DNA of 64,000 bases. Source: a virus. How positions within the stretch are numbered: position 1 is the stretch's first letter; each line of letters begins with the position of its first letter. The DNA lies in UHGV virus genome UHGV-0134778, one strand, 5' to 3'. Positions 2,348 through 41,222 of this stretch are shown piece after piece. The notes under the pieces were generated by a model, which worked only from the letters and a program-made list of their open reading frames with translations, did not search any database and was not told the origin of the DNA. Made by a program: the position numbers and the translations under genes.

Positions 2348-2899
2348 TTACTGACCACTGTCTGTAACCGCTTTACCAGAATTGGGTGAAGGGAAATGTG
2401 TGGTTATTTCAGCCTTAATTCCCTGAAGATCCTCAAAAGCCCCAATGTCTGTCTCAACAAACCTTACGTTAAATGTCAGCATTACGGTAGCTCTATTTTC
2501 ATACGTCTGCTTATTCAACGGCACCCTTTGAGGTGAAATTGTTGAATTGTTAGAGTAGGCAAAGCACGATCCCAGAGGGAAATACTTGTCATAAAACATT
2601 GGAAGGTTTATTGCTTGCAATACTCTGCTAAGTGCAGCATATGCCCTGCCGCGATAAGCTGTTAACAGATAAGTAACAGTATAACTGTGGGTGACGTAAG
2701 CATTACCCTCCGCATCTTGAAACTCATTATCTTCCCAAGTGGTGGGATTGATCGCCAGGGTTTGCAAAAGTACAAACTCACCTTCCGGCTTCGGTATGGT
2801 AGAGCTTTCTGCCAGAACTACAGTTCTTCCTGTGGCAACCATGACAAGCTTAGCGATGGTTGTTTCAAGATCAGAAAAAACTTTTTCGAAAGCTTCCAT
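2348..2899 (-). CDS. hypothetical virion protein (neck or tail completion)
   Basis: 183-aa ORF in the co-directional late array between capsid and sheath genes. Confidence 0.45.
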   Translation of the reverse strand: MEAFEKVFSDLETTIAKLVMVATGRTVVLAESSTIPKPEGEFVLLQTLAINPTTWEDNEFQDAEGNAYVTHSYTVTYLLTAYRGRAYAALSRVLQAINLPMFYDKYFPLGSCFAYSNNSTISPQRVPLNKQTYENRATVMLTFNVRFVETDIGAFEDLQGIKAEITTHFPSPNSGKAVTDSGQ

Positions 2900-3324
2900 C
2901 AGTTTTCTCCTTCAGGCTCTTCTACCACAAAAAATCTATATCTTCCACCACCAGATGTGACATATGCATCGCATTTTAAAACGGTAAACCATTTCAAGTC
3001 ACCACGGATGTCAGGTAGTTGAATTTGATCAGCCATTGCATATGTTCCTTCATCTGGACTATACAACTTGGTTGATGAGTAAACTGTAAAAGCCTCGTAC
3101 TGTCTGTCACCCTCAGGATTTATCTGGGAGGAGTAATCTTTAGCTGCTCTTCCTGTCAACGGCTGCACAACACACTCTAAGACATCAAACTCTTCATACT
3201 CAAGTTCTAACCCCTCGTTAGCAAAAGGACTGCCAACTGTTTTGTTATACACTCTGTGGCGACCTTTGAATGTTTTACGAGGTATTAGCCTGTTCTTTCC
3301 TATCAGCTTATAACCTGCTGCCAC
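2899..3324 (-). CDS. hypothetical virion protein (head-tail joining region)
   Basis: 141-aa ORF, start/stop overlap with neighbour, late array. Confidence 0.45.
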   Translation of the reverse strand: MAAGYKLIGKNRLIPRKTFKGRHRVYNKTVGSPFANEGLELEYEEFDVLECVVQPLTGRAAKDYSSQINPEGDRQYEAFTVYSSTKLYSPDEGTYAMADQIQLPDIRGDLKWFTVLKCDAYVTSGGGRYRFFVVEEPEGEN

Positions 3325-10059: not shown

Positions 10060-10866
10060 TTAGATAAAACGCTTGAACATAGAAGGTGATGAGATTGATG
10101 GAATCACACAAGGCAGCGCTACCTCCTCTTTCTCCAGGAAATTAATCGCAGAAGCTACACAGTCGGCCCAGTCGTCTTTTCTGTTAAATGTTGATCTTTC
10201 CCCGTTGAACTTTTCAAGTTCAGTCAGAAATGCTTCCAGAGTGTCAGGATGGAAACTGGATTTTACAATCCTCACCATTCCTTGTTGGGCAAGATTGGCA
10301 AAAGGTGAGAACCTTGTCAGTTTAGATTTGTTGGAAGGCATTGGATCTTCTTCAACCCTGAACCCTTCGGCGAGCAAGGATCTGGACGAGGTTAAGAATT
10401 CACTCTTACCTGCCTGACCGGGGTCCACAGAAAATACGATTATGCAATCATCTCCATCAAACTGCGCCTGTTTCCTGATGATCACATCTCGTTCCCCAGC
10501 CTTTTTACAGAACTTGCCTTCCAGACCTGTGGAATACCTACCGTCATCCACGTTCTCAGGACAATAATCCCCGGACAGGTAATAAAAGCCGTCGCTATCT
10601 TTACTTACCTTAACACTGGCGGTAAAGTCAGGAAATTTATTACCGGAAGTTCTCTCGGTTCCTGCCTTATCCCATGCCCTGCAAGATACTGATCCAAGAG
10701 GTACTCTATCGGCATCCCGAAGGAAAGATCTTTGGAAATAGTTTGCACCTTCAGGTTTGGCAAACCAGTTGCCATGAAGAAGCTGGGCTTTTTCAAGCTC
10801 TGGCAGACCTTCAAGGAAAGCAAGGTATTCTGGGTTGTCTCTCAAGCAGACAGGATTATCGAATCC
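10060..10866 (-). CDS. terL: terminase large subunit, C-terminal nuclease part (exon 2 or separately translated fragment)
   Basis: Open frame continues upstream of the ORF-track TTG start to a stop at about 10867; no convincing RBS of its own; acidic residues spaced as in terminase RNase-H-like nuclease domains. Confidence 0.6.
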   Translation of the reverse strand, partial: GFDNPVCLRDNPEYLAFLEGLPELEKAQLLHGNWFAKPEGANYFQRSFLRDADRVPLGSVSCRAWDKAGTERTSGNKFPDFTASVKVSKDSDGFYYLSGDYCPENVDDGRYSTGLEGKFCKKAGERDVIIRKQAQFDGDDCIIVFSVDPGQAGKSEFLTSSRSLLAEGFRVEEDPMPSNKSKLTRFSPFANLAQQGMVRIVKSSFHPDTLEAFLTELEKFNGERSTFNRKDDWADCVASAINFLEKEEVALPCVIPSISSPSMFKRFI

Positions 10867-11837
10867 TTATATTCAAGGGTGGTCGCAACACCACCCTCCG
10901 CACCATTACGTGCTGCTGCATGTTACCATGCAGAGTAGACTATATCACCACCCATCTCAGGGGTGCTTCGCTTTTCGAGCGCCATAAGCTTGCGCCCTAC
11001 TCCCTCTCGGGATAGTCGTTGAACTACATTACCAATCATAATTGTTTGAAATATAGGTGTAAGTCTTACGGTCTTTTATTCCTTTAACAACACTAAAACT
11101 TACTCCCCACTTCTTAGCTATTTTATTTACACACAAAGCCCTACCACTAAGATCCTCGCAGATACCTATTATCTTGTGCTCACTTATCCTATTAGAGGTT
11201 GGCACTTTTCTAAAGTTAAATTCTTTAGAAATATCTGGGTATACTGAGCCATTCTTTATACCACTTACAAGTGGTTGATTGACACCAAACATTTCACAAA
11301 TGTCTTTTACCCTTGCACCTTGCTCTAACAGCCTACATATTTCAAGAGCAGTGGCATCATCTAGGGACCTGTATTTATTGACATAGTCCTTTTTAAGTCC
11401 CATTTCATGAGCGTGATGTGTGTTTTCCTCAGGCGTTGTCCACTCAAGGTTCCATGCGGCGTTATTCAACTTATTGCCATCCAGGTGGTTTACTTGAGTT
11501 TTCACACTGGGGTTATCATTATCTACAAAAGTCATAGCAATAACTCTGTGGACTAGCACTTGGAACTTTTTCCCGCCCTCGCACAAAGTGACCATAGCAT
11601 AGCCAGTCTTTTTCTGCACATTAGGATGGAGGAATTTATTAGAATACAGGCTGTAAATTCTGCCATCGTATGTAGCACAATAATGATTGTAACCTAAAAA
11701 GCCTAAATTTTTCATTTCAAACATCTCCCTACTACAGGTTCGGAAGGGTAATTATAGCTGCTGATTGTCCGTTTAGCAATCGGATTTTCCAGCAATTAAC
11801 GAAGTTATTCGACGTGCATTTCTGCACGAAGCCACTA
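10867..11837 (-). mobile_element. putative group I intron carrying an HNH homing endonuclease gene, inserted in the large terminase gene
   Basis: About 970 nt separate the ATPase and nuclease halves of terL; GC-rich hairpin-forming sequence flanks a free-standing HNH ORF; exact splice sites not determined. Confidence 0.5.
11029..11724 (-). CDS. HNH homing endonuclease
   Basis: 231 aa with HNH_3-like motif (QVNHLDGNKLNNAAWNLEWTTPEEN) and a C-terminal DNA-binding-like region; embedded between the terL halves. Confidence 0.7.
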   Translation of the reverse strand: MFEMKNLGFLGYNHYCATYDGRIYSLYSNKFLHPNVQKKTGYAMVTLCEGGKKFQVLVHRVIAMTFVDNDNPSVKTQVNHLDGNKLNNAAWNLEWTTPEENTHHAHEMGLKKDYVNKYRSLDDATALEICRLLEQGARVKDICEMFGVNQPLVSGIKNGSVYPDISKEFNFRKVPTSNRISEHKIIGICEDLSGRALCVNKIAKKWGVSFSVVKGIKDRKTYTYISNNYDW

Positions 11838-12587
11838 TCATTTAATGGTTGCGCCTATGAACGAGAATGACAACGGTCTTGGCTTGATCTCTACGCCAAG
11901 TCCGTTAACCGTGGTGTATTTCTCTATCAACTCTTCTTTAGAGTCTCCCCAGATAAATTCGCCGTCGCGTCGGATAAAATACCTTTTCTTACCGCATTTC
12001 TCCGGATCTGGATACCCTTCATCGTCCAACCACCATCTAACCAGTTTGGCAAGCATGTGTTCTGAGTCTGGGTTACAGCTGATAACCATTCTTGATGGAT
12101 ACTTTGACTGAGATCGCAGACGAGACATCAAATAGTCTATCTGCTCCCATTCGAATTGCGTGCCTTCATCGAAGCAAACCATGGTGTACTCAAGGCCTTG
12201 ATGGTTAAGCTTATCTTGGACATACTCCATGTGGCAGTATTTTACAACGGCCCCTTTTTTGCTCCTGTCCCACTTGCCAGTGCTCGGATCAAACCGTGGA
12301 AAAATAAACTTATGATCCTTCTCTCTGAACTTTGGTTTAATGTTTTCAGGCAGATCACTGTAAATAGCTACTGCTTTAGGCCATAGACCACCCTCACCTT
12401 CCAACTGTGGAGTTGTTCTTCGGAACATAACCACAGAGCTGTGCGGGTCATCAATAATTTTAAGCGGCATTAGCTGCAAGAGGAACGACTTGCCAGACCC
12501 AGCTGCACCTCCGATCACCAAAATATCTGCATCGTTCTCTAGGATCATCTTCTGCTTTTCAGAACACGGTCCGTAAATCTTAGACAT
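11838..12587 (-). CDS. terL: terminase large subunit, N-terminal ATPase part (exon 1)
   Basis: Walker A GGAAGSGKS and Walker B-like MVCFDEGTQ; frame ends in a stop inside the inserted element. Confidence 0.75.
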   Translation of the reverse strand: MSKIYGPCSEKQKMILENDADILVIGGAAGSGKSFLLQLMPLKIIDDPHSSVVMFRRTTPQLEGEGGLWPKAVAIYSDLPENIKPKFREKDHKFIFPRFDPSTGKWDRSKKGAVVKYCHMEYVQDKLNHQGLEYTMVCFDEGTQFEWEQIDYLMSRLRSQSKYPSRMVISCNPDSEHMLAKLVRWWLDDEGYPDPEKCGKKRYFIRRDGEFIWGDSKEELIEKYTTVNGLGVEIKPRPLSFSFIGATIK

Positions 12588-13691: not shown

Positions 13692-13768
13692 TGGTCTCCA
13701 CGGAGTGATTCGAACACTCGACCTCCTGATCCCAAATCAGGCGCTCTACCAAGCTGAGCTACGCGGAG
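13692..13768 (-). tRNA. tRNA-Pro (anticodon TGG)
   Basis: Hand-folded cloverleaf: 7-bp acceptor stem, D arm GCTC/GAGC, anticodon loop TTTGGGA, T loop TTCGAAT, encoded CCA. Confidence 0.85.
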
Positions 13769-13779
13769 TATTTATTATT

Positions 13780-13854
13780 TGGTGGCCCTGGGTGGAATTG
13801 AACCACCGTCTGGCGATTATGAGTCGCTTGCTTGAACCTTCCAGCTACAGGGCC
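13780..13854 (-). tRNA. tRNA-Met (anticodon CAT; elongator type, could be lysidine-modified Ile2)
   Basis: Acceptor GGCCCTG/CAGGGCC, anticodon loop CTCATAA, T loop TTCAATT, encoded CCA; G1-C72 pair argues against initiator. Confidence 0.8.
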
Positions 13855-13855
13855 A

Positions 13856-13931
13856 TGGTGCTGATGGCAGGACTTGAACCTGCAACCTATTGATTACAAA
13901 TCAATTGCACTGCCAATTGTGCTACATCAGC
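13856..13931 (-). tRNA. tRNA-Thr (anticodon TGT)
   Basis: Perfect 7-bp acceptor stem GCTGATG/CATCAGC, anticodon stem-loop ATTGA-TTTGTAA-TCAAT, T loop TTCAAGT, encoded CCA. Confidence 0.85.
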
Positions 13932-13935
13932 AAAA

Positions 13936-14034
13936 GGTGCTAGGTGATGGAATCGAACCACCTATGTATTCAACGACTACCTCGTCTATTTTCAGGATTA
14001 AAAATCCTCGCCCTTGCCAAAGGGCTTACCTAGC
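13936..14034 (-). tRNA. atypical tRNA-like element (99 nt): possible non-canonical tRNA or tRNA pseudogene
   Basis: Perfect 7-bp acceptor stem (GCTAGGT/ACCTAGC), canonical D arm and T arm (GGTGG-TTCGATT-CCATC), but A8-A9 instead of U8, an AGGATT-TTT-AATCCT hairpin in place of a standard anticodon arm, and a ~31-nt insert containing a second hairpin; no CCA encoded. Confidence 0.35.
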
Positions 14035-14132
14035 GCAATATGTTGACCATGTGGCTAGTCGGCGATGACGACTGTAACATTTGATAATCCGGTTCTGCTT
14101 CCGGCTTTCGCTTAATTACAAGGTCAACAATG

Positions 14133-14223
14133 TGGCGGAGAGTAATGGAATCGAACCATCATCGAGTCATCCTCAACGGGACGGTTTTCAAGACCGCTTG
14201 AGCACCATTGCTCCCTACCCTCC
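14133..14223 (-). tRNA. tRNA-Ser (anticodon TGA), class II with long variable arm
   Basis: Acceptor GGAGGGT/ACTCTCC with one G-U pair, anticodon stem-loop GCGGT-CTTGAAA-ACCGT, ~20-nt variable arm, T loop TTCGATT, encoded CCA. Confidence 0.8.
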
Positions 14224-14337
14224 TTTATAAATTACACTGATAATGACACTGATTTTCGAGCAGTTAGTGACTAGTATAAACGACGATAAATATCAATGTC
14301 ATTATCTGTATGATTTATGCATTTAAAAATATAAATT

Positions 14338-14424
14338 TGGTGGGGAGTGGTGGAGTCGAACCACCCGAGTCGCAATGACAATAGATTTACAGTCTACACC
14401 GCTACCTCTACGGGATAACTCCCC
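14338..14424 (-). tRNA. tRNA-Tyr (anticodon GTA), class II
   Basis: Acceptor GGGGAGT/ACTCCCC, anticodon stem-loop GTAGA-CTGTAAA-TCTAT, variable arm, T arm GGTGG-TTCGACT-CCACC, encoded CCA. Confidence 0.8.
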
Positions 14425-14428
14425 AATT

Positions 14429-14503
14429 TGGCACCCCGTACTGGACTCGAACCAGTGTCAACGGCTTAGAAGGCCGCTGCTTTATCCACTAAGCTAACAG
14501 GGC
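14429..14503 (-). tRNA. tRNA-Arg (anticodon TCT)
   Basis: Acceptor GCCCTGT/ACGGGGT with two G-U pairs, D arm GCTT/AAGC, anticodon stem-loop GCGGC-CTTCTAA-GCCGT, T arm ACTGG-TTCGAGT-CCAGT, encoded CCA. Confidence 0.8.
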
Positions 14504-33668: not shown

Positions 33669-33899
33669 ATGAGTCATAACTCCAAGTGGAAGGATCTTGG
33701 TTTTGCAAGTCGGGCAGAATATGTTGGTTGGCTTTGGTTCAACGGTCTGACAAACGATATTAAAATGTATGATGATGTTTACTATGACGAGTATACAGGT
33801 AAAATTATAAATATCTCTGTAGAAGAGGATACCTTTGTCCAGCAAGATACTGATACCTGCCTTGATAAATACGTTGATGAAGTGGAGGAAGCAAATTGA
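33669..33899 (+). CDS. hypothetical protein
   Basis: Trimmed to ATG (MSHNSKWK) preceded by AGGTGGTGA; ends at the nrdA start. Confidence 0.45.
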   Translation: MSHNSKWKDLGFASRAEYVGWLWFNGLTNDIKMYDDVYYDEYTGKIINISVEEDTFVQQDTDTCLDKYVDEVEEAN

Positions 33900-36211
33900 T
33901 CACCAAGGTAATTAAAAGCAACGGATGTGAAGTGGCATTCGATCCAGAACGTTTAAATAAGGCGGCTATTTTCGGTGACGACGGTAACGGCAATTGGTCA
34001 CATATTGCACTGGATGCATACAAGCGGCTGTATGATGGATGTACAACCAAAGAAGTTAACCAAGCTATTATAGACTCTTGTGTTAGCCGTAAAGACGAAG
34101 CACATTCCCGTATGGCTGGTCGTGTTCTTATTGGTCAGATTTATAAAGAGGCTTTTGGAGGGTTTACAAAGATCCCTTCCTTACCATCATTTTACAATAC
34201 CATGGTTGAGAAAGGGTATTGGGAGGATATGGGTTATAGCTTTACCGAGCTAAACACTTTAGACGCTGTTATTGACCACAGTAAAGATCTCGGTTATGGC
34301 TATGCAGTCCTTAAACAGTTTCGAGACAAATACGGGATCAAGGATACTCTTAAAGACACCCTGTTCGAATCTCCACAGATGATGTTTATGGGGATAGCGA
34401 TGGCTGTCATGAAAAATATGCCGAAAGAACGCCGTATTGACGATGTTGTAAAATTATACACTTATCTGTCAGACTTAAAGATCAATGCCCCGACACCGTA
34501 CTTAAACGGGCTGCGCACAGGCAAGACAGGGTATGCATCTTGTTGTGTAATAAAAGCTGACGATACAGCAAAATCTATTGGTGTGGCACGTGAAGTTGCA
34601 TACACAATGACGGTTAACCAAGCAGGTATTGGCTACTATTTATCATCAAGATCTGCAGGTGATGGTGTTCGTGGTAACACTATTAAACATATGGGCAAGA
34701 TTCCATATTATCGAGGTATTGATGCTGGGGTTAAGGAGAACAGACAACAATCACGTGGCGGTTCTGCAACAGTATCATTCCTTGCACTGGACCCGCAGAT
34801 TGATGAGCTAATCCGTTTGAGAAACCCTATGACTGTTGCTTCAAAAAGAATCAACACCATGGACTACTCTATAGGTATTAATAGGTCGTTTATCAACCGT
34901 GTGGCTAAAAATTTAGATTGGATGCTTGTTTCTTATAAGCACGCGCCTCAACTGCATGAAGGTATCTTCACCATGTCTATGGAGGAGTTTGATGCCGAGG
35001 TTGATCGTATCGCTAAAGATGACAGTATTCCTAAAACATGGATCCGAGCTAGAGATCTTGCTGTTGAGCTGATCACGCAGCGCACCGAGGTTGGAAGGTT
35101 GTACGTATACTGGACAGATGAGATGAATAGACATACACCTTTTAAAGATGTGATCTATTCAAGTAACCTGTGTGCAGAAATAGCCCTCCCGACAAAAGGC
35201 TATTCAGATATGCGTAATATCTTCAAGTACGATGTTGATGATGGCGAAGTTGCATTGTGCTTCCTGTCATCTCTTGTAGCTGGAAGGGTTACCCCAGAGG
35301 AGTATGAGGATGTTGCATACTACACGGTGCTTATGATTGACAATGTTATGGAAATCATGACATATCCGTATGAAAATATGGAGAGCACTGTTAAAAAACG
35401 CAGATCCATCGGGGTTGGCCTTACCAATGTTGCACATTTTATTGCCAGCCACAAGGTTGCTTACGGGTCTCCTGAAAGTAAACAGCTTGTTCACGATCTT
35501 GCAGAGCTCCACAGCTACAGCTTGCATAAGGCAAGTTTACGATTGGCAAAAGAGCGGGGTGTCTGTGAGTGGATGCATAAAACAAAATACCCGGAGGGTT
35601 GGTTACCAATCGACACTTATAACAAAGAGGTCGATAGTGTGGTGAAAGATCCTTCTCTTAAGCAGGATTGGGAAGGGTTACGTAAAGAAATCATTGAAAA
35701 TGGTGGGCTACGTAATAGCGTTCTTGAAGCATATATGCCTAATGAAAGCTCTTCGCTGGCAACAAACACCACTAACGGGGTTTATCCTGTCCGTGAGCAC
35801 ATTATCTTTAAAAAGTCGCCACAAGGGCAGGTGCTGTTTATCGTTCCTGAATATGATGAACTGAAAGAGTATTATACCTCGGCTTGGGACGTTGATACTA
35901 ACGACATGATTGATATGTATGCTGTGATTCAAAAATTCACAGGACAGGCAATTAGTGCTGACCTATATATTGATTACACCAAGTTGAAAGATGGTAAAAT
36001 TTCAATGAAGGAGCAGCTGGGGTATCTTATCCGTGCTACTAAATTCGGGATGAAGACATGGTATTACTTAAACTCTCGGGTTGGTGCTGGTGACTCTTTG
36101 ACAGAGGAGCTCCACGCGAAGAAACAGGCTGAAGATGAAACCAGAAAGAACTATCCTTTGATTGCAGATAGTTCAGTTGAAGATCCATATTGCGAAAGTT
36201 GTGCACTGTAA
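33896..36211 (+). CDS. nrdA: ribonucleoside-diphosphate reductase alpha subunit (class Ia NrdA)
   Basis: 771 aa; ATP-cone N-terminus, catalytic NLCAEI motif, C-terminal CESC redox pair; TTG start with GGAGG RBS. Confidence 0.9.
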   Translation: MITKVIKSNGCEVAFDPERLNKAAIFGDDGNGNWSHIALDAYKRLYDGCTTKEVNQAIIDSCVSRKDEAHSRMAGRVLIGQIYKEAFGGFTKIPSLPSFYNTMVEKGYWEDMGYSFTELNTLDAVIDHSKDLGYGYAVLKQFRDKYGIKDTLKDTLFESPQMMFMGIAMAVMKNMPKERRIDDVVKLYTYLSDLKINAPTPYLNGLRTGKTGYASCCVIKADDTAKSIGVAREVAYTMTVNQAGIGYYLSSRSAGDGVRGNTIKHMGKIPYYRGIDAGVKENRQQSRGGSATVSFLALDPQIDELIRLRNPMTVASKRINTMDYSIGINRSFINRVAKNLDWMLVSYKHAPQLHEGIFTMSMEEFDAEVDRIAKDDSIPKTWIRARDLAVELITQRTEVGRLYVYWTDEMNRHTPFKDVIYSSNLCAEIALPTKGYSDMRNIFKYDVDDGEVALCFLSSLVAGRVTPEEYEDVAYYTVLMIDNVMEIMTYPYENMESTVKKRRSIGVGLTNVAHFIASHKVAYGSPESKQLVHDLAELHSYSLHKASLRLAKERGVCEWMHKTKYPEGWLPIDTYNKEVDSVVKDPSLKQDWEGLRKEIIENGGLRNSVLEAYMPNESSSLATNTTNGVYPVREHIIFKKSPQGQVLFIVPEYDELKEYYTSAWDVDTNDMIDMYAVIQKFTGQAISADLYIDYTKLKDGKISMKEQLGYLIRATKFGMKTWYYLNSRVGAGDSLTEELHAKKQAEDETRKNYPLIADSSVEDPYCESCAL

Positions 36212-36250: not shown

Positions 36251-37339
36251 ATGGCTGTATTTAATACTGAGAACACTGCTCATAAAACTGGTGATTATCC
36301 GCTGTTTTTAGGACAGCAGATGGGGATGTACGACTCTATTAACAAAAAGTACCCACAGCTGTTTGAACTATACAAAAAACAAAAAGAACAAGATTGGGCA
36401 GAGGACGAAGTAGATTTGTCACAGTCTATTTCGGATTTCGTAACATGCTCAAAGTCAACTTACGATGTGATGGTGCAGACACTTATGTGGCAATGGGAGG
36501 CAGACAGTGTTGCAGCAAGATCTATCATTTGTCTGTTTTCACCATTTATCACCAATAGTGAACTTTTCACCTTGTTGATGAAGCAGTCTGAGATTGAGGT
36601 TCTTCATGCATTAACTTACTCAGAGATTGTTAGACAATGCCTTCCTAATGCTCGTGAGATTATAGAAGAGATTCAGGAAAACCAGAACGTGCTGAGCAGA
36701 TCTGGAGTTATTGTCAAATATATGCAAGAGCTTGAGGTTATTGGTGCAAAATACCGACTGGATCCTTCCAGTGTTGAAGAGGATGTTGTACGGAAATGTA
36801 TCCTTAGAGCACTTTTTGCACTTTTAGCTCTAGAAAGTATTGAGTTTATTGCAAGTTTTGCATGTACGTTCGCAGTAGCTGAGCAAGGTATTTTTGTTCA
36901 AGTTGCACAACTCGTTCAAAAAATTATGCTTGATGAAATGCTGCATTCGAAAGGCGATTTTGCTATCATCGATATCCTGGTTGATGATCCTGCATGGGAG
37001 CAAAGCTTTCTTGAGATTAAGGGTGAGTTAAAAGAAATTCTTGACGAAGTGCGAATCAAGGAGTACGGTTGGAGTGACTATATTTTCAGCGAAGGAAGAG
37101 CAATTATAGGTCTTAACTCACCATTACTTAAAGAATGGGTTGACTATAACTGCTCACCGATTTATGATTACTACAACATCGACAAAGACTTTGTGCCGCC
37201 AACAAAGGACCCGTTACCGTTTATGCAGGTGTGGATGAAACCTTCACTGCAACAGACGGCTAACCAGGAAATGTCTAACACCGACTACCGCGTCAACACA
37301 ACTGTTAATGACGCTGAAGAAGAAATTTGGGAGTTTTAA
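36251..37339 (+). CDS. nrdB: ribonucleoside-diphosphate reductase beta subunit (NrdB)
   Basis: 362 aa; FLGQ, EDEVDLS and iron-ligand helix EIEVLHALTYSEI parallel E. coli NrdB. Confidence 0.85.
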   Translation: MAVFNTENTAHKTGDYPLFLGQQMGMYDSINKKYPQLFELYKKQKEQDWAEDEVDLSQSISDFVTCSKSTYDVMVQTLMWQWEADSVAARSIICLFSPFITNSELFTLLMKQSEIEVLHALTYSEIVRQCLPNAREIIEEIQENQNVLSRSGVIVKYMQELEVIGAKYRLDPSSVEEDVVRKCILRALFALLALESIEFIASFACTFAVAEQGIFVQVAQLVQKIMLDEMLHSKGDFAIIDILVDDPAWEQSFLEIKGELKEILDEVRIKEYGWSDYIFSEGRAIIGLNSPLLKEWVDYNCSPIYDYYNIDKDFVPPTKDPLPFMQVWMKPSLQQTANQEMSNTDYRVNTTVNDAEEEIWEF

Positions 37340-37342
37340 TAT

Positions 37343-37621
37343 ATGAGTTGTGAAAAATCTTTTTTCATTATCATCTACGGTAAGGATAACTGCCCACATT
37401 GTGTAAGAGCAAAAGAATTTGCAGTAAGCAAAGGTATACCTTTCGTATACAAGACGCTCGGTGAAGGATACACAAAAGAAGAGCTTATTGAGAAGTGTAG
37501 TCCATTTGTTCCCAGAACGTTGCCTCAGATCTTCTTGGAAAGCAACCTTGATAGTGTCCACATAGGTGGTGCTGACGATTTCATCTCTTTTGTTAAGAAT
37601 GGTCTTGGAGAGAAAAAGTGA
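37343..37621 (+). CDS. glutaredoxin-like protein (T4 NrdC-like)
   Basis: CPHC active site and C-terminal LPQIF ... HIGG pattern. Confidence 0.8.
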   Translation: MSCEKSFFIIIYGKDNCPHCVRAKEFAVSKGIPFVYKTLGEGYTKEELIEKCSPFVPRTLPQIFLESNLDSVHIGGADDFISFVKNGLGEKK

Positions 37622-38469
37622 AAGTTGTAAAACGGGACGGCAGAGAAGAGGTCTATAACGGAGTTAAGGTAATCAAGGCGGCAGAGTCCGCCTTACTTGA
37701 GTCTGGGCATACTGAAGAAGAAGCTTACCGGATCGCTTGTGCGGTTAATGAAGTTGTTGCCAACAATCTACCAACCGACCAGTGCACGATCTCTGTAAAA
37801 AATATCCATATCCTTGTTGAAGATGCTCTTATGGATATGGGTTTAAAATGTGCAGCCAGAGAATATATCCAGTATAGACAGACAAGAGATAATAACAGAG
37901 AGGCAGGTGGAAAACTGCTTGCAGATATTAGTGGCTTCTTGGATCGAACTTGTGATGAATTTACAAAAGAAAACGCAAATAAGCCCACTAATCATGTACA
38001 TACTCATCGTGACCTGCTTGCAGGTATCCTTAGCAAACACCTTGCATCAACACAGATACTGCCAGATCGTGTCTCCGAAGAGCACAACAAGGGATTCATC
38101 CATGTGCATGATCTTGACTATCTGATCAGTCCGTTAACAAACTGCTGTTTGGTGAATTATCCGGATATGCTGGAAAACGGATTCAACATTGGCAACGCCC
38201 ATGTCAGTAAGCCGAAGTCAATAGGGGTTGCAACAACAATCCTCAGCCAAATCTCTAGTGCAGTAGCTAGTGCTCAATATGGTGGTCAGACCATGAGCCA
38301 TATTGATCATTATCTGGCGCAGTATGCTGAAGCAACCTATGAGAAGAATCTTAAATTTTGTCAGGAACATTGGTTGCCAGATGCTGAGACTGTTGCAATG
38401 CAAATGACAGATAAAGACGTGTTTGATAGTATGCAAACTTTGCTCTACCAAATCAATACGTTAACTTCT
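37618..38469 (+). CDS. nrdD: anaerobic ribonucleoside-triphosphate reductase NrdD, exon 1
   Basis: ATP-cone N-terminus (VVKRDGREEVYNGVKVIKA) and NrdD N-terminal domain; frame hits a stop 9 nt later; 3' boundary inferred, approximate. Confidence 0.75.
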
Positions 38470-39270
38470 GTCAACGGTTAACAAACTGGCCGTTGTAAAA
38501 CTCTCCTAACCTCATAAGAGGGGTCGGTAAATCCGGCTAACGGGGAACGCTAAGGCGAAAGCTATGCCAATCCCGTGACTAGTTCTTACAGGAGTTGGAA
38601 CGGTTGTAACGACTAACGAAAGGCAGAGATGCTTGACAAACATTTCTGAACCGAGTAGTGTAGGGGTTAGTTGAAATACTAACTTCGAAATGGAGAGACT
38701 CTATGAAAAAGATCATTCTTAATGGTGAAGAATCGAACTACGTGATTGATGAGGTTGGAAACGTATACGGAAAACGTGGAATGCTGCACCCCATATTGTG
38801 GGGAGGTTATGGAAAAGGTAACAAGCATGTCAAACGCCGCTATATGTATTCTTTCAACCACAAAGGTAAGAAGATTCGAATCCAAACTTCAAGGGTTGTT
38901 GCCTTGTATTGTTTGCCAGATGTCCCAGAAGACCCTGAAAACTGGGAAGTGAATCATAAAGATGGCAATACATTGAATGATCATCCGTCTAACCTGGAGT
39001 GGGTTTTGCCGGAAGATAATAAGAGACATGCTTTCCGAACAGGGCTTTGTCCAGGCAAGTGCTACAGGAAAGTGCAGGCATACCGAGGGAAAACCTTGGT
39101 GGGTGAATATCCTTCACTCTATGCCTGTGCAAAAGCCTTAAATTTGAACGTAGGGAACGTCCATAGGGCTATCGAAGGAAATGCCGAAGGTAAGCATCTC
39201 ACAATAAAGGGTTATTATCTTATTGAAGTAGAGTAAGAGATAGTCTGGCCCTGTGGAAACACAGGGGTGG
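38470..39270 (+). mobile_element. putative group I intron in nrdD carrying an HNH homing endonuclease ORF
   Basis: ~800 nt separate two collinear NrdD halves; 5' portion is GC-rich with hairpins, then an HNH ORF, then a short structured 3' segment ending in G before the exon-2 frame; boundaries approximate. Confidence 0.6.
38703..39236 (+). CDS. HNH homing endonuclease
   Basis: HNH_3-like motif WEVNHKDGNTLNDHPSNLEWVLPEDN; own GGAG RBS. Confidence 0.7.
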   Translation: MKKIILNGEESNYVIDEVGNVYGKRGMLHPILWGGYGKGNKHVKRRYMYSFNHKGKKIRIQTSRVVALYCLPDVPEDPENWEVNHKDGNTLNDHPSNLEWVLPEDNKRHAFRTGLCPGKCYRKVQAYRGKTLVGEYPSLYACAKALNLNVGNVHRAIEGNAEGKHLTIKGYYLIEVE

Positions 39271-40539
39271 AGACAGCAGACTCCATTCATCACATTAAGT
39301 TTAGGACTGGATACCTCAATCTTTGGTAGAATGATTACCAAAAACTACCTGAAAGTCCACAAAATGGGTCTTGGTGAAGAACGTATCACACCTGTGTTCC
39401 CTAAGGTGTTGTTCTTCCTGGAGGAGGGTATCAACATGAACCCCGAGGATCCTAACTATGATTTGAAACGATTAGCTCTGGAATGCTCTGCAGAGCGGAT
39501 TTATCCTGACTTCGTATCTGTACCACTAAATAGAAAAGTGACAGGTTCAACAGAAGGTAATGTCACAAGCATGGGTTGCCGGAGTTTTCTTAGCAAATAC
39601 AATGACTTGGAAACAGGAGAGGAGAAATACCTTGGCAGATTTAACTTAGGTGTTGTTAGCCTTAACCTACCAATGATTGCAGCCAAAGCTAAAACGGAAG
39701 GTGTTGATTTCTTTGCAGTTCTTGACGAGTACTTGGATCTGGCCTACGAGGCTCACCTTGTAAGGGTTAACCGTCTAAAAGGAACAAAGGCAGGGCAGAA
39801 CCCCATCATGTGGTGTGAAGGAGCCCTTGCTCGCCTGGATCCTGAAGAGAGTATTGATAAACTTTTCTATGACGGGTATGCTTCCATAAGTATTGGATAT
39901 ATTGGTGTGTATGAAACCTGCCAGATTTTAGGCAGAGAGGGAGACAAGTCCTTAGCTCTTGGGATCCTTCAGCACATGAAAGACGCTTGTGATCGGTACA
40001 AAAAAGAAAGTGGTCTGGCATTCAGCTTGTACGGCACTCCTTCAGAGAGCTTGTGCTATAAGGCTGCAACATGTCTAGATCGTGAATATCCTGAAGTGTT
40101 GAAGCACGAGCACGAATACCTTACCAACAGTTTCCACCAGCCCGTGTGGATCAATAGTTCACCTTTTGACAAGTGGAAGTATGAGGAAGGTTTTGCTATG
40201 ATCTCTTCTGGCGGCAACATTGGATACATAGAAACACCTAACCTGAAAAACAACCCGGATGCTTTGGAAGCCCTTGTCGATTTCGGGTATAAACACATTA
40301 TGTATTTTGGTATTAACCAACCTGTGGATAAATGCCTTAAGTGTGGATTCTCTGGTGAGTTCAGTGCAACAGCTAAAGGCTTTGTATGCCCAGAGTGTGG
40401 AAACCATGAAGAAGGAACGATCAGCGTGATTAGACGTGTATCTGGGTATTTGTCTAGTCCAAACTCCCGTCCTTACAACAAAGGTAAGCAAGCGGAAGTT
40501 ATAGAACGGGTTAAGCACTACGGAAGTTGTGGTTGCTGA
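39271..40539 (+). CDS. nrdD: anaerobic ribonucleoside-triphosphate reductase NrdD, exon 2
   Basis: Glycyl-radical motif RVSGYLS near the C-terminus and zinc-site cysteines CLKCG ... CPECG; continues NrdD sequence from exon 1. Confidence 0.75.
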   Translation, partial: RQQTPFITLSLGLDTSIFGRMITKNYLKVHKMGLGEERITPVFPKVLFFLEEGINMNPEDPNYDLKRLALECSAERIYPDFVSVPLNRKVTGSTEGNVTSMGCRSFLSKYNDLETGEEKYLGRFNLGVVSLNLPMIAAKAKTEGVDFFAVLDEYLDLAYEAHLVRVNRLKGTKAGQNPIMWCEGALARLDPEESIDKLFYDGYASISIGYIGVYETCQILGREGDKSLALGILQHMKDACDRYKKESGLAFSLYGTPSESLCYKAATCLDREYPEVLKHEHEYLTNSFHQPVWINSSPFDKWKYEEGFAMISSGGNIGYIETPNLKNNPDALEALVDFGYKHIMYFGINQPVDKCLKCGFSGEFSATAKGFVCPECGNHEEGTISVIRRVSGYLSSPNSRPYNKGKQAEVIERVKHYGSCGC

Positions 40540-40602
40540 TACTTGACAAAAGCCACAAGGATGTGGCATATTGTTATCACACAGTAAACTAGGAGGTGCA
40601 GT

Positions 40603-40719
40603 ATGTCTACAGGTATTTATAAAATTTGCAAGTGCGGTTGTCATTGCAATCTTCGTTGGTGTAAGGCACTGGACGATTTTATTTGGCATTGTCCTAAATG
40701 CGATGCGGAGTACTTATGA
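40603..40719 (+). CDS. small Cys-rich protein (38 aa; putative zinc ribbon), not in the ORF track
   Basis: Strong RBS AGGAGGTG 7 nt upstream; MSTGIYKICKCGCHCNLRWCKALDDFIWHCPKCDAEYL; its stop overlaps the nrdG start (ATGA). Confidence 0.5.
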   Translation: MSTGIYKICKCGCHCNLRWCKALDDFIWHCPKCDAEYL

Positions 40720-41189
40720 ATATTGTCGGATACACAGAAATATCCTACACCGAAGGGCCGGGTCTCAGGACGGCCTTGTGGGTATCTGGGTGCCCACACG
40801 CTTGTCCTGGTTGCTTTAATCAAGCATTTTGGTCAAAAGATAAGGGAAGAGAATTCACCGAAGAAGATTTGCAGAGAATTTTGTCAGATTTAGACAATGA
40901 ATCTATATGCGGTATTTCTTTGCTTGGTGGAGAACCTTTGGCTACGTATAATGAGCCCGGTATTATTAAACTTATGAGGAGAATTAAGGAAAAGTTTGGT
41001 GACAAGAAAACTATTCTTGTGTATACTGGGTTCACATTTGAGCATATCTCTAGTGATGTTCTTGAGCTGGCTGATATCATCATTGATGGCAAGTATGTAA
41101 AAGATTTACCAACAAAGAAACCATTCCGAGGCAGCGATAACCAAAGAATGTTTAAAAAGGTAGCAGGCGGTTGGGTTCAGGTTGACTAG
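40716..41189 (+). CDS. nrdG: anaerobic ribonucleotide reductase activating protein NrdG (radical SAM)
   Basis: Radical-SAM Cys motif CPHACPGC; start set at the ATG (MNIVGYTE) coupled to the upstream micro-ORF. Confidence 0.8.
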   Translation: MNIVGYTEISYTEGPGLRTALWVSGCPHACPGCFNQAFWSKDKGREFTEEDLQRILSDLDNESICGISLLGGEPLATYNEPGIIKLMRRIKEKFGDKKTILVYTGFTFEHISSDVLELADIIIDGKYVKDLPTKKPFRGSDNQRMFKKVAGGWVQVD

Positions 41190-41192
41190 TCG

Positions 41193-41222
41193 TTGACAAA
41201 GCTTTGGTAAGTTGGTTATAAT
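41193..41222 (+). promoter_or_regulatory. sigma70-like promoter
   Basis: TTGACA-N17/18-TATAAT upstream of a strong GGAGGTG RBS. Confidence 0.6.

Follow-up and report, generated by a model that had tools for sequence, protein, structure and literature searches.

The nrdD gene of phage T4 carries an intron (sunY) of 1033 nt, which lies within the Tyr codon of AYEY/EVNT and encodes the GIY-YIG enzyme I-TevII from an ORF located in the 3' P9 region rather than in P8. IA2-like introns are likewise described from the DNA polymerase genes of phages SPO1 and SP82 (encoding I-HmuI and I-HmuII), from Bastille (I-BasI) and from Twort (I-TwoI), and the I-HmuI-type enzymes are proteins of about 175 amino acids with an HNH_3 domain and a C-terminal helix-turn-helix. 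In the Vequintavirinae, Certrevirus CB7 has HNH introns in terL, DNA polymerase, nrdA and nrdB, for which splicing was established by RT-PCR (PMC7344957), and an interruption of terL was described in the rV5 genome paper (PMC3606486). Closest of all to the element considered here are the introns of FV3, FFH2, slur16 and the BASEL phages MaxBurger/Bas54, EmilHeitz and WalterGehring, which occupy the same site in nrdD at 94-98% identity and carry the same HNH ORF, together with an ORF-less form in HeinrichReichert/Bas58, AlexBoehm and SophiaRose. The BASEL records, in which intron boundaries were set through comparative genomics (PMC8594841), give a joined nrdD CDS from which 257 nt (Bas58) or 797 nt (Bas54) are removed, matching the boundaries reported below; they label the ORF within the intron a "putative homing endonuclease", and the FV3 and FFH2 records label it an HNH homing endonuclease. 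The element is thus already known from annotation in sister genomes, and the copy analysed here is another allele that differs from them in nothing material.

We analysed a 64,000-nt stretch of the viral genome UHGV-0134778 (the window, whose coordinates are used throughout). Identity to named phages places it in Vequintavirus (rV5-like coliphages): the 3-kb region around the nrdD split shares 98.4% identity with Escherichia phage EI-SP-GF and 94-96% with FV3, FFH2, slur16 and several BASEL phages, all of them Vequintavirus. An earlier note had read the interruption of nrdD as an intron-like HNH element, and this reading stands, although not with the boundaries that it gave; very probably the element is a group I intron of IA2-like type, mobile and self-splicing, in a Vequintavirus nrdD. 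The genes of the neighbourhood, taken from the ORF list, are as follows.

33896-36211, plus strand: nrdA
36251-37339, plus strand: nrdB
37343-37621, plus strand: glutaredoxin
37618-38481, plus strand: NrdD N-terminal ORF, with its stop TAA at 38479-38481
ending at 40539, plus strand: NrdD C-terminal part
40698-41189, plus strand: nrdG

As the note had observed, nrdD is split, with the N-terminal ORF ending at the TAA and the C-terminal part restarting about 800 nt further on without a credible start or ribosome-binding site. The only start listed in the C-terminal frame is a GTG at 39253, which lies inside helix P9 and has no Shine-Dalgarno sequence; the ORF list and inspection of the sequence gave no in-frame AUG or ribosome-binding site for the second exon.

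The boundaries were resolved by comparison with intronless alleles. The nrdD genes of rV5 (DQ832317) and ECP32 are uninterrupted, at 2124 nt each, and when aligned to the window (...ACTTCTGTCAACGG[G]CAAAC...) their sole difference at the junction is the block 38479-39276. The junction itself reads GTCAACGG[G]CAAAC, or VNG/QTPF in protein. For exon 1 we also aligned the structures of T4 and other NrdD proteins; T4 NrdD reads ...NTLFSSNG-QTPF..., with no space for extra residues, and aligns without a gap at the corrected junction only. From the junction sequences of rV5, ECP32 and T4 it follows that the intron is 38479-39276, inserted between codons Gly287 and Gln288.

37618-38478, plus strand: nrdD exon 1, 861 nt, 287 codons, ending ...NTLTSVNG (from the ORF list, the NrdD structure alignment and the intronless alleles)
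38479-39276, plus strand: group I intron, 798 nt, beginning with the in-frame TAA and ending with omegaG 39276 (from the intronless-allele comparison, sub-threshold RF00028 matches and covariation)
39277-40539, plus strand: nrdD exon 2, 1263 nt, from QTPFITL... to the glycyl-radical motif RRVSGYL and the stop
rV5 and ECP32: intronless nrdD target site, ...TCTGTCAACGGGCAAACCCCATTC...

Since the intronless alleles read VNG/QTPF and the two exons sum to 2124 nt, the CDS length of rV5 and ECP32, the spliced protein is predicted to read ...NTLTSVNG/QTPFITL... over 707 codons. U38478, the last base of exon 1, and G39276, the final base of the intron, both fit group I chemistry. A shift of both junctions by one base would leave the protein unchanged, but the 5' splice site would then follow a G and the intron would end in A; as this breaks the U/G rule, the canonical placement at 38479-39276 is preferred. 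The boundaries of the earlier note, 38470-39270, are off by 9 nt (5') and 6 nt (3') relative to the intronless alleles. The spliced peptide it predicted, NTLTS/RQQTPF, is in frame but one residue short of intact homologues and mismatched at the junction, so that the alignment to intact NrdD that it had proposed as a check produces a gap, whereas the corrected junction fits exactly. The 9 nt beyond the conserved segment that it took for read-through are the exon codons VNG, the stop being the first three bases of the intron, while the residues WRQ (39268-39276) are encoded by the intron; the U and G that it pointed to (38469 and 39270) are coincidental, the relevant pair being U38478 and G39276.

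The intron RNA can be folded into a group I core with the following elements.

38472-38495, plus strand: P1, exon CAACGGU (38472-78) with the internal guide GCCGUUG (38489-95), 7/7 pairs
38486-88 with 39277-79, plus strand: possible P10, CUG with the first three bases of exon 2
38501-38506, plus strand: P3 5' strand, CUCUCC, pairing with GGAGAG at 38692-97
38510-13/38518-21 and 38523-27/38533-37, plus strand: two hairpins between the P3 5' strand and J3/4
38540-45/38571-76, plus strand: P4 (Rfam partial alignment)
38549-50/38566-67, plus strand: P5 (Rfam partial alignment)
38554-56/38561-63, plus strand: P5a, with a GAAA loop; covaries
38582-89/38594-601, plus strand: P6a; covaries, with one mismatch in the window
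38609-38615, plus strand: P7 5' strand (R element), A38609, bulged C38610 and GACUA 38611-15
38617-38652, plus strand: P7.1 region, with the extended hairpin GGCAGAGAUG/CAUUUCUG(AA)CC at 38622-52 (from alignment to the ORF-less form and reading of the sequence)
38663-71/38678-86, plus strand: P7.2, 9 bp; covaries
38692-38697, plus strand: P3 3' strand, GGAGAG, doubling as Shine-Dalgarno sequence of the HNH ORF
38698-703/39229-34, plus strand: P8, ACUCUA/UAGAGU, with the HNH ORF in its loop
38703-39236, plus strand: I-HmuI-like HNH homing-endonuclease gene, 177 aa, in the P8 loop
39241-46, plus strand: P7 3' strand (S element AAGAGAUAGUC), UAGUCU; matches the R/S consensus
39249-55/39260-66, plus strand: P9, with a GAAA loop, followed by a 10-nt tail and omegaG 39276 (Rfam 3' core alignment)

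The layout is that of IA2-like phage introns such as those of T4 and the Twort type: past the P7 5' strand come P7.1 and P7.2, and only then the 3' strand of P3, which directly adjoins P8; the order P7.2-GAAAU-P3'-P8 is one that we take to be common to this intron and the Twort ribozyme (1Y0Q). Two features set it apart from IA2-like introns: there is no P2 between P1 and P3, and the P3 5' strand is not followed directly by J3/4 and P4. The two hairpins that intervene recur, with other sequences, in the related introns L001, L010, L008, L028, L011 and L013, the last four of which lie in other genes; they are absent from L014-type relatives, in which AAAACTCTCT is followed directly by TAACGGGG and, across the P3 5' strand and J3/4, AAAACUCUCU adjoins UAACGGGG with no hairpins between. 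In the literature we found no named subgroup to which this arrangement without P2 and with two hairpins corresponds, and no published structural description of the nrdD intron.

Comparison with relatives extends to the individual helices. One of these relatives, L027, is an IMG/VR phage whose NrdD is 38-56% identical and which has a homologous intron at the same NG/Q site, with an HNH ORF in P8. P1 is a 7-bp helix closed at the 5' splice site by the U38478.G38489 wobble, and its outermost pair covaries, being C-G in the window, A-U in L001 and L010, and U-A in L027. The P7 extension pair changes from A-U to G-C in L008 and L027, and P7.2 holds a constant position across all relatives with different hairpin sequences. 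P7.1 has 2 bp in the ORF-less form versus the extended hairpin of the window, and in the ORF-less intron P8 is a short hairpin closed by GUCUGA/UCAGGC. When IMG/VR was scanned for the pattern of the P4-P5 core, 27 further loci came to light, L027 among them, and the same core is common to Listeria and Bacillus phage introns. For P3, a proximal 5' strand, CGCUG beside J3/4, was suggested by Rfam's alignment of L001; it was rejected because it is unpairable in the window, whereas the CUCUCC/GGAGAG helix forms, with covariation, in all the sequences. Single-sequence minimum free energy folding of the ORF-less intron, a method that cannot represent the P3/P7 pseudoknot, recovered the local hairpins with z = -3.7.

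In each of nine related introns, whose sequences differ, all thirteen helices are paired. Across these nine introns 86.3% of cells contain standard pairs, versus 34-46% after displacement of the 3' partners by 1-3 columns, a percentage that is somewhat inflated since the structure was derived from the counted sequences and the alignment was pruned. The two-sided changes, seen in 35 of the 67 pairs, are not affected in the same way, and none of 500 shuffles matched the observed covariation score. P3 is paired in 100% of cells, with two-sided changes at five of its six pairs, and such changes occur at every pair of P8 (6/6) and at six of seven in P9. The count was made on a MAFFT alignment of cores from which the P7.1 region and the interior of L8 had been removed, because MAFFT misaligned P7.1-P8 in full-length cores; P1 of L011 and L013 was not assignable and was left out.

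The group I identity of the element rests on the R/S core, the P3-P7 pseudoknot, this covariation, the ORF-less homologue and the intronless alleles; the pseudoknot is accompanied by a P4-P6 domain, and within the R and S elements the P7 bulge lies beside a G-C pair. Searching the whole window with Rfam at gathering score returned tRNAs only and no group I intron. The relevant model, RF00028, is broad, and its gathering score of 50 bits is a curated detection threshold, not a biological defining feature. In E-value mode it matched 39121-39266 at 25.1 bits (E=5e-4), of which the S element AAGAGAUAGUC and P9 are the reliable portion, and 38540-38616 at 11.3 bits, covering P4-P6 and the R element GUAACGACUAA. 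The low score arises because the ORF and the extra hairpins interrupt the alignment; the model aligns to the whole of the 257-nt ORF-less homologue, scoring 29.8 bits (E=3e-4). The cmsearch with group I models that the earlier note had suggested therefore does find the intron, but with sub-threshold matches only, so that an Rfam search is not decisive by itself. The in-frame stop with which the intron opens rules out an intein. The R and S elements are those of group I, and the element is too small for a group II intron and is without a reverse transcriptase. In the literature that could be searched we found no published transcript, RT-PCR or in vitro splicing data, and no endonuclease tests, for the nrdD intron.

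The ORF in the P8 loop, reported in the note as an HNH ORF with its own ribosome-binding site, is confirmed as such, with GGAGAG preceding a reading frame of 177 aa at 38703-39236. It matches Pfam HNH_3 (PF13392) at 29.4 bits (cut-off 24.8) and belongs to PHROG 59, HNH endonuclease (E=3e-26). Its alignment to I-HmuI (PDB 1U3E) runs end to end at E=5e-4 and spans the region matched by PF22083, the C-terminal I-HmuI NUMOD-like DNA-binding domain, which scored 18.4 bits, under its cut-off of 27. In the HNH_3 motif (H-x-D/N-G-N...N...N-L-x-W), VNHKDGNTLNDHPSNLEWV of the ORF aligns with VDHKDGNKDNNLSTNLRWV of I-HmuI, and the ORF is 46% identical to that in the L027 intron.

The translation signals of this gene are embedded in the ribozyme. 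The P3 3' strand serves as its ribosome-binding site, the P8 5' strand ends with the A of its AUG, and its stop UAA overlaps the P8 3' strand and J8/7, so that ribozyme folding and HNH translation would be mutually exclusive: the folded ribozyme would mask the signals, and passage of a ribosome would open P3 and P8. Sequestration of the ribosome-binding site has a precedent in the intron-encoded endonucleases of T4 (PMC2988022). The ORF-bearing form further contains an insert of about 34 nt after P7 that is missing from the ORF-less form, and the loop of its hairpin carries TTGACA (38633-38), followed 17 nt on by TAGTGT (38656-61). To read these hexamers as a promoter is speculative; a sigma-70 consensus scan did not flag the site, and the L027 intron has no equivalent of the insert. 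Under this proposal transcripts initiated at the site would be missing the P3 5' strand, so that the HNH ORF could be translated from them, and T4 intron promoters offer a parallel. A search for a T4-like operator, that is a copy of the homing site upstream of the ORF, found none, the best match being 13/20 and equalled in 104 of 200 shuffles. We raise tentatively, and regard as rather doubtful, the suggestion that introns with this combination of no P2, two hairpins after P3 and Rfam scores of 25-35 bits form an undescribed IA2-like branch, perhaps with a switch between ribosome-binding site and promoter governing the endonuclease.

The intron is polymorphic among close relatives. We counted 127 related phage records, in which the nrdD junction region is at least 80% identical: 80 are intronless, 14 have the ORF-less 257-nt intron at the same site (HeinrichReichert, SophiaRose and twelve other phages) and 33 have the intron with its HNH ORF, the first two classes making up the 94 (80 + 14) that are contiguous or nearly so. 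Such a presence/absence pattern is typical of homing, and is what repeated rounds of invasion followed by loss of the endonuclease and of the intron would produce; it supports the note's suggestion of active homing-element traffic in this lineage.

In the mechanism that we propose, transcription would cross the intron, and a ribosome on exon 1 would halt at the TAA formed by the first three intron bases. The RNA would fold, and an external guanosine would attack after U38478, held in P1, whereupon exon 1 would attack after G39276 to yield an uninterrupted 707-codon NrdD mRNA. By analogy with I-HmuI, I-BasI and I-TwoI, the HNH product may nick or cut the intronless nrdD of co-infecting relatives near NG/Q, and repair of the cut allele would copy the intron in, completing homing.

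The window contains a second HNH-bearing intron, which lies in terL; the note, too, had spoken of two such elements.

10060-10845, minus strand: Terminase_6C ORF (terL)
about 10850-11840, minus strand: terL intron
11029-11724, minus strand: HNH_3 ORF in the terL intron
11838-12587, minus strand: Terminase_6N ORF (terL)

RF00028 gave sub-threshold matches in this region as well, at 10916-11161 and 11493-11854. Within nrdD itself, phita32, C2, JEP1 and L027 have another intron, which carries an ORF of its own, some 300 nt further downstream at SMG/CRSF; in the window this site is empty (39574/39575).

Three other readings of the nrdD interruption were weighed against a splicing intron. The intron might have decayed and no longer splice, leaving nrdD a pseudogene in this lineage; the additional P7.1 insert and the P6a mismatch of the window version would fit such decay, and NrdD may be dispensable under aerobic laboratory culture. 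We consider this very improbable, since the core helices are all intact, both exons retain an open frame with the conserved catalytic and glycyl-radical motifs, and 33 independent isolates retain the same version, intron and HNH ORF together, at 94-98% identity. Less probable still is a gene in pieces of the Aeh1 nrdA/mobE type, in which an endonuclease cassette split nrdD without splicing and the halves are translated separately and assemble. Cases of this kind are known in phage ribonucleotide reductase genes (PMC3653736; PMC7344957), several GenBank records list two separate NrdD CDSs, and Rfam calls no intron at gathering score; yet exon 2 has neither an in-frame AUG nor a ribosome-binding site and its sole listed GTG is buried in P9, the insert contains a complete and covarying group I core, and the ORF-less 257-nt form persists where a free-standing endonuclease cassette would leave none. 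We give next to no credence to an intron with boundaries 38470-39270 and the product NTLTS/RQQTPF which, for all that it is in frame with a U and a G before its junctions, is already refuted by the intronless alleles, its product being one residue short and mismatched, VNG/SNG being exonic in rV5, ECP32 and T4, and P1 pairing exon 38472-78 with U38478 opposite a G.

Reading the locus as a single nrdD with a group I intron bears on its annotation. Gene callers and many GenBank records split nrdD into two genes and a hypothetical protein, where the correct model is a single NrdD of 707 codons whose gene is interrupted by an intron at 38479-39276. At gathering score this intron family escapes the Rfam group I model, whereas comparison with intronless and ORF-less alleles resolves it exactly. 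The three allelic states (empty site, intron with endonuclease, and ORF-less intron) represent a textbook homing cycle in a group of phages employed in therapy and biocontrol, and homing elements cause local gene conversion that confuses phylogenies (PMC8594841).

Among known systems, the T4 nrdD intron shares with that of the window the host gene, the conserved region and the initial UAAC, and in both the endonuclease is under RNA-structure control, which for the window is a prediction from the positions of its translation signals. It is nonetheless a different intron with a different endonuclease: it lies 32 nt upstream, and a BLAST comparison could not align the two intron cores. CB7, likened here by description, resembles the window in its HNH introns but differs from it in that no interruption of its nrdD is reported. 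By its endonuclease the window intron is closest to SPO1 I-HmuI, although the host gene and host phylum are others and identity to I-HmuI is low (E=5e-4); it differs from the introns of SPO1, Bastille and Twort in lacking P2 and in the two hairpins that follow its P3 5' strand. With these hairpins, the missing P2, its poor Rfam score and a possible promoter and ribosome-binding-site switch, the nrdD intron is mildly unusual, and otherwise an ordinary member of the phage introns to which it is compared.

The nrdD intron of the window and those at the compared loci L008, L011, L013 and L028 share an architecture in which P2 is missing and two hairpins (38510-38537 in the window) are present instead, between the 5' strand of P3 and J3/4. 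Relatives of the type found at L014, L023, L030 and L033 are without these two hairpins. Against the Rfam group I intron model RF00028, all members of the family score only 25-35 bits, compared with a gathering score of 50.

Confined to the ORF-bearing version of the intron is an insert of about 34 nt, within 38617-38661, which folds as a hairpin. Its loop carries TTGACA, with TAGTGT 17 nt downstream, and the HNH gene may be transcribed from this TTGACA-17-TAGTGT arrangement as from an internal promoter; a promoter consensus scan did not flag it. We took as the putative start of that gene the ATG that follows GGAGAG (38703-39236), while the homing-endonuclease CDS in the BASEL annotation of phage MaxBurger (L037, 1377-1937) begins 27 nt upstream of this ATG. 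Strong sigma-70-like promoters were seen after two genes. The one immediately after nrdD (40543-40572) reads TTGACA-18-CATATT, has the TG of an extended -10 and overlaps a hairpin (40552-40567); the one after nrdG (41193-41222) is a perfect TTGACA-18-TATAAT.

The window also has an empty homing site within nrdD, at 39574/39575 (SMG|CRSF, at the conserved cysteine). In phages phita32, C2 and JEP1, and in a distant IMG/VR contig (L027), SMG|CRSF is occupied by a second nrdD intron; this intron, which carries an ORF of its own, is absent from the window.

Elsewhere in the window, a second group I intron interrupts the terminase large-subunit gene (10060-12587, minus strand) and contains an ORF:

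11029-11724, minus strand, ORF with HNH_3 and HTH, inside the terminase large-subunit intron

Its two matches to RF00028, 31.7 bits at 10916-11161 and 25.6 bits at 11493-11854, are both sub-threshold, and at the 3' end it is similar to the second nrdD intron in phita32 (L002, about 3150-3230). Six tRNA genes are clustered at 13695-14503 on the minus strand; two of these barely exceed the Rfam threshold, one at 13938-14034 with 35.5 bits, whose 97 nt are many for a tRNA, and one at 14343-14422 with 29.9 bits.

The P4-P5 core of the window's nrdD intron recurs, almost unchanged in sequence, in introns of two other phages: Listeria phage LP-114 (L007, 994-4052), where the intron interrupts a DNA polymerase I gene and the record gives a joined CDS and an HNH homing endonuclease, and Bacillus phage S4-2 (L006, about 2440-3160), where it splits an unannotated gene. 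In both, the ORF appears to lie after P6, rather than in P8 as in the nrdD intron of the window.
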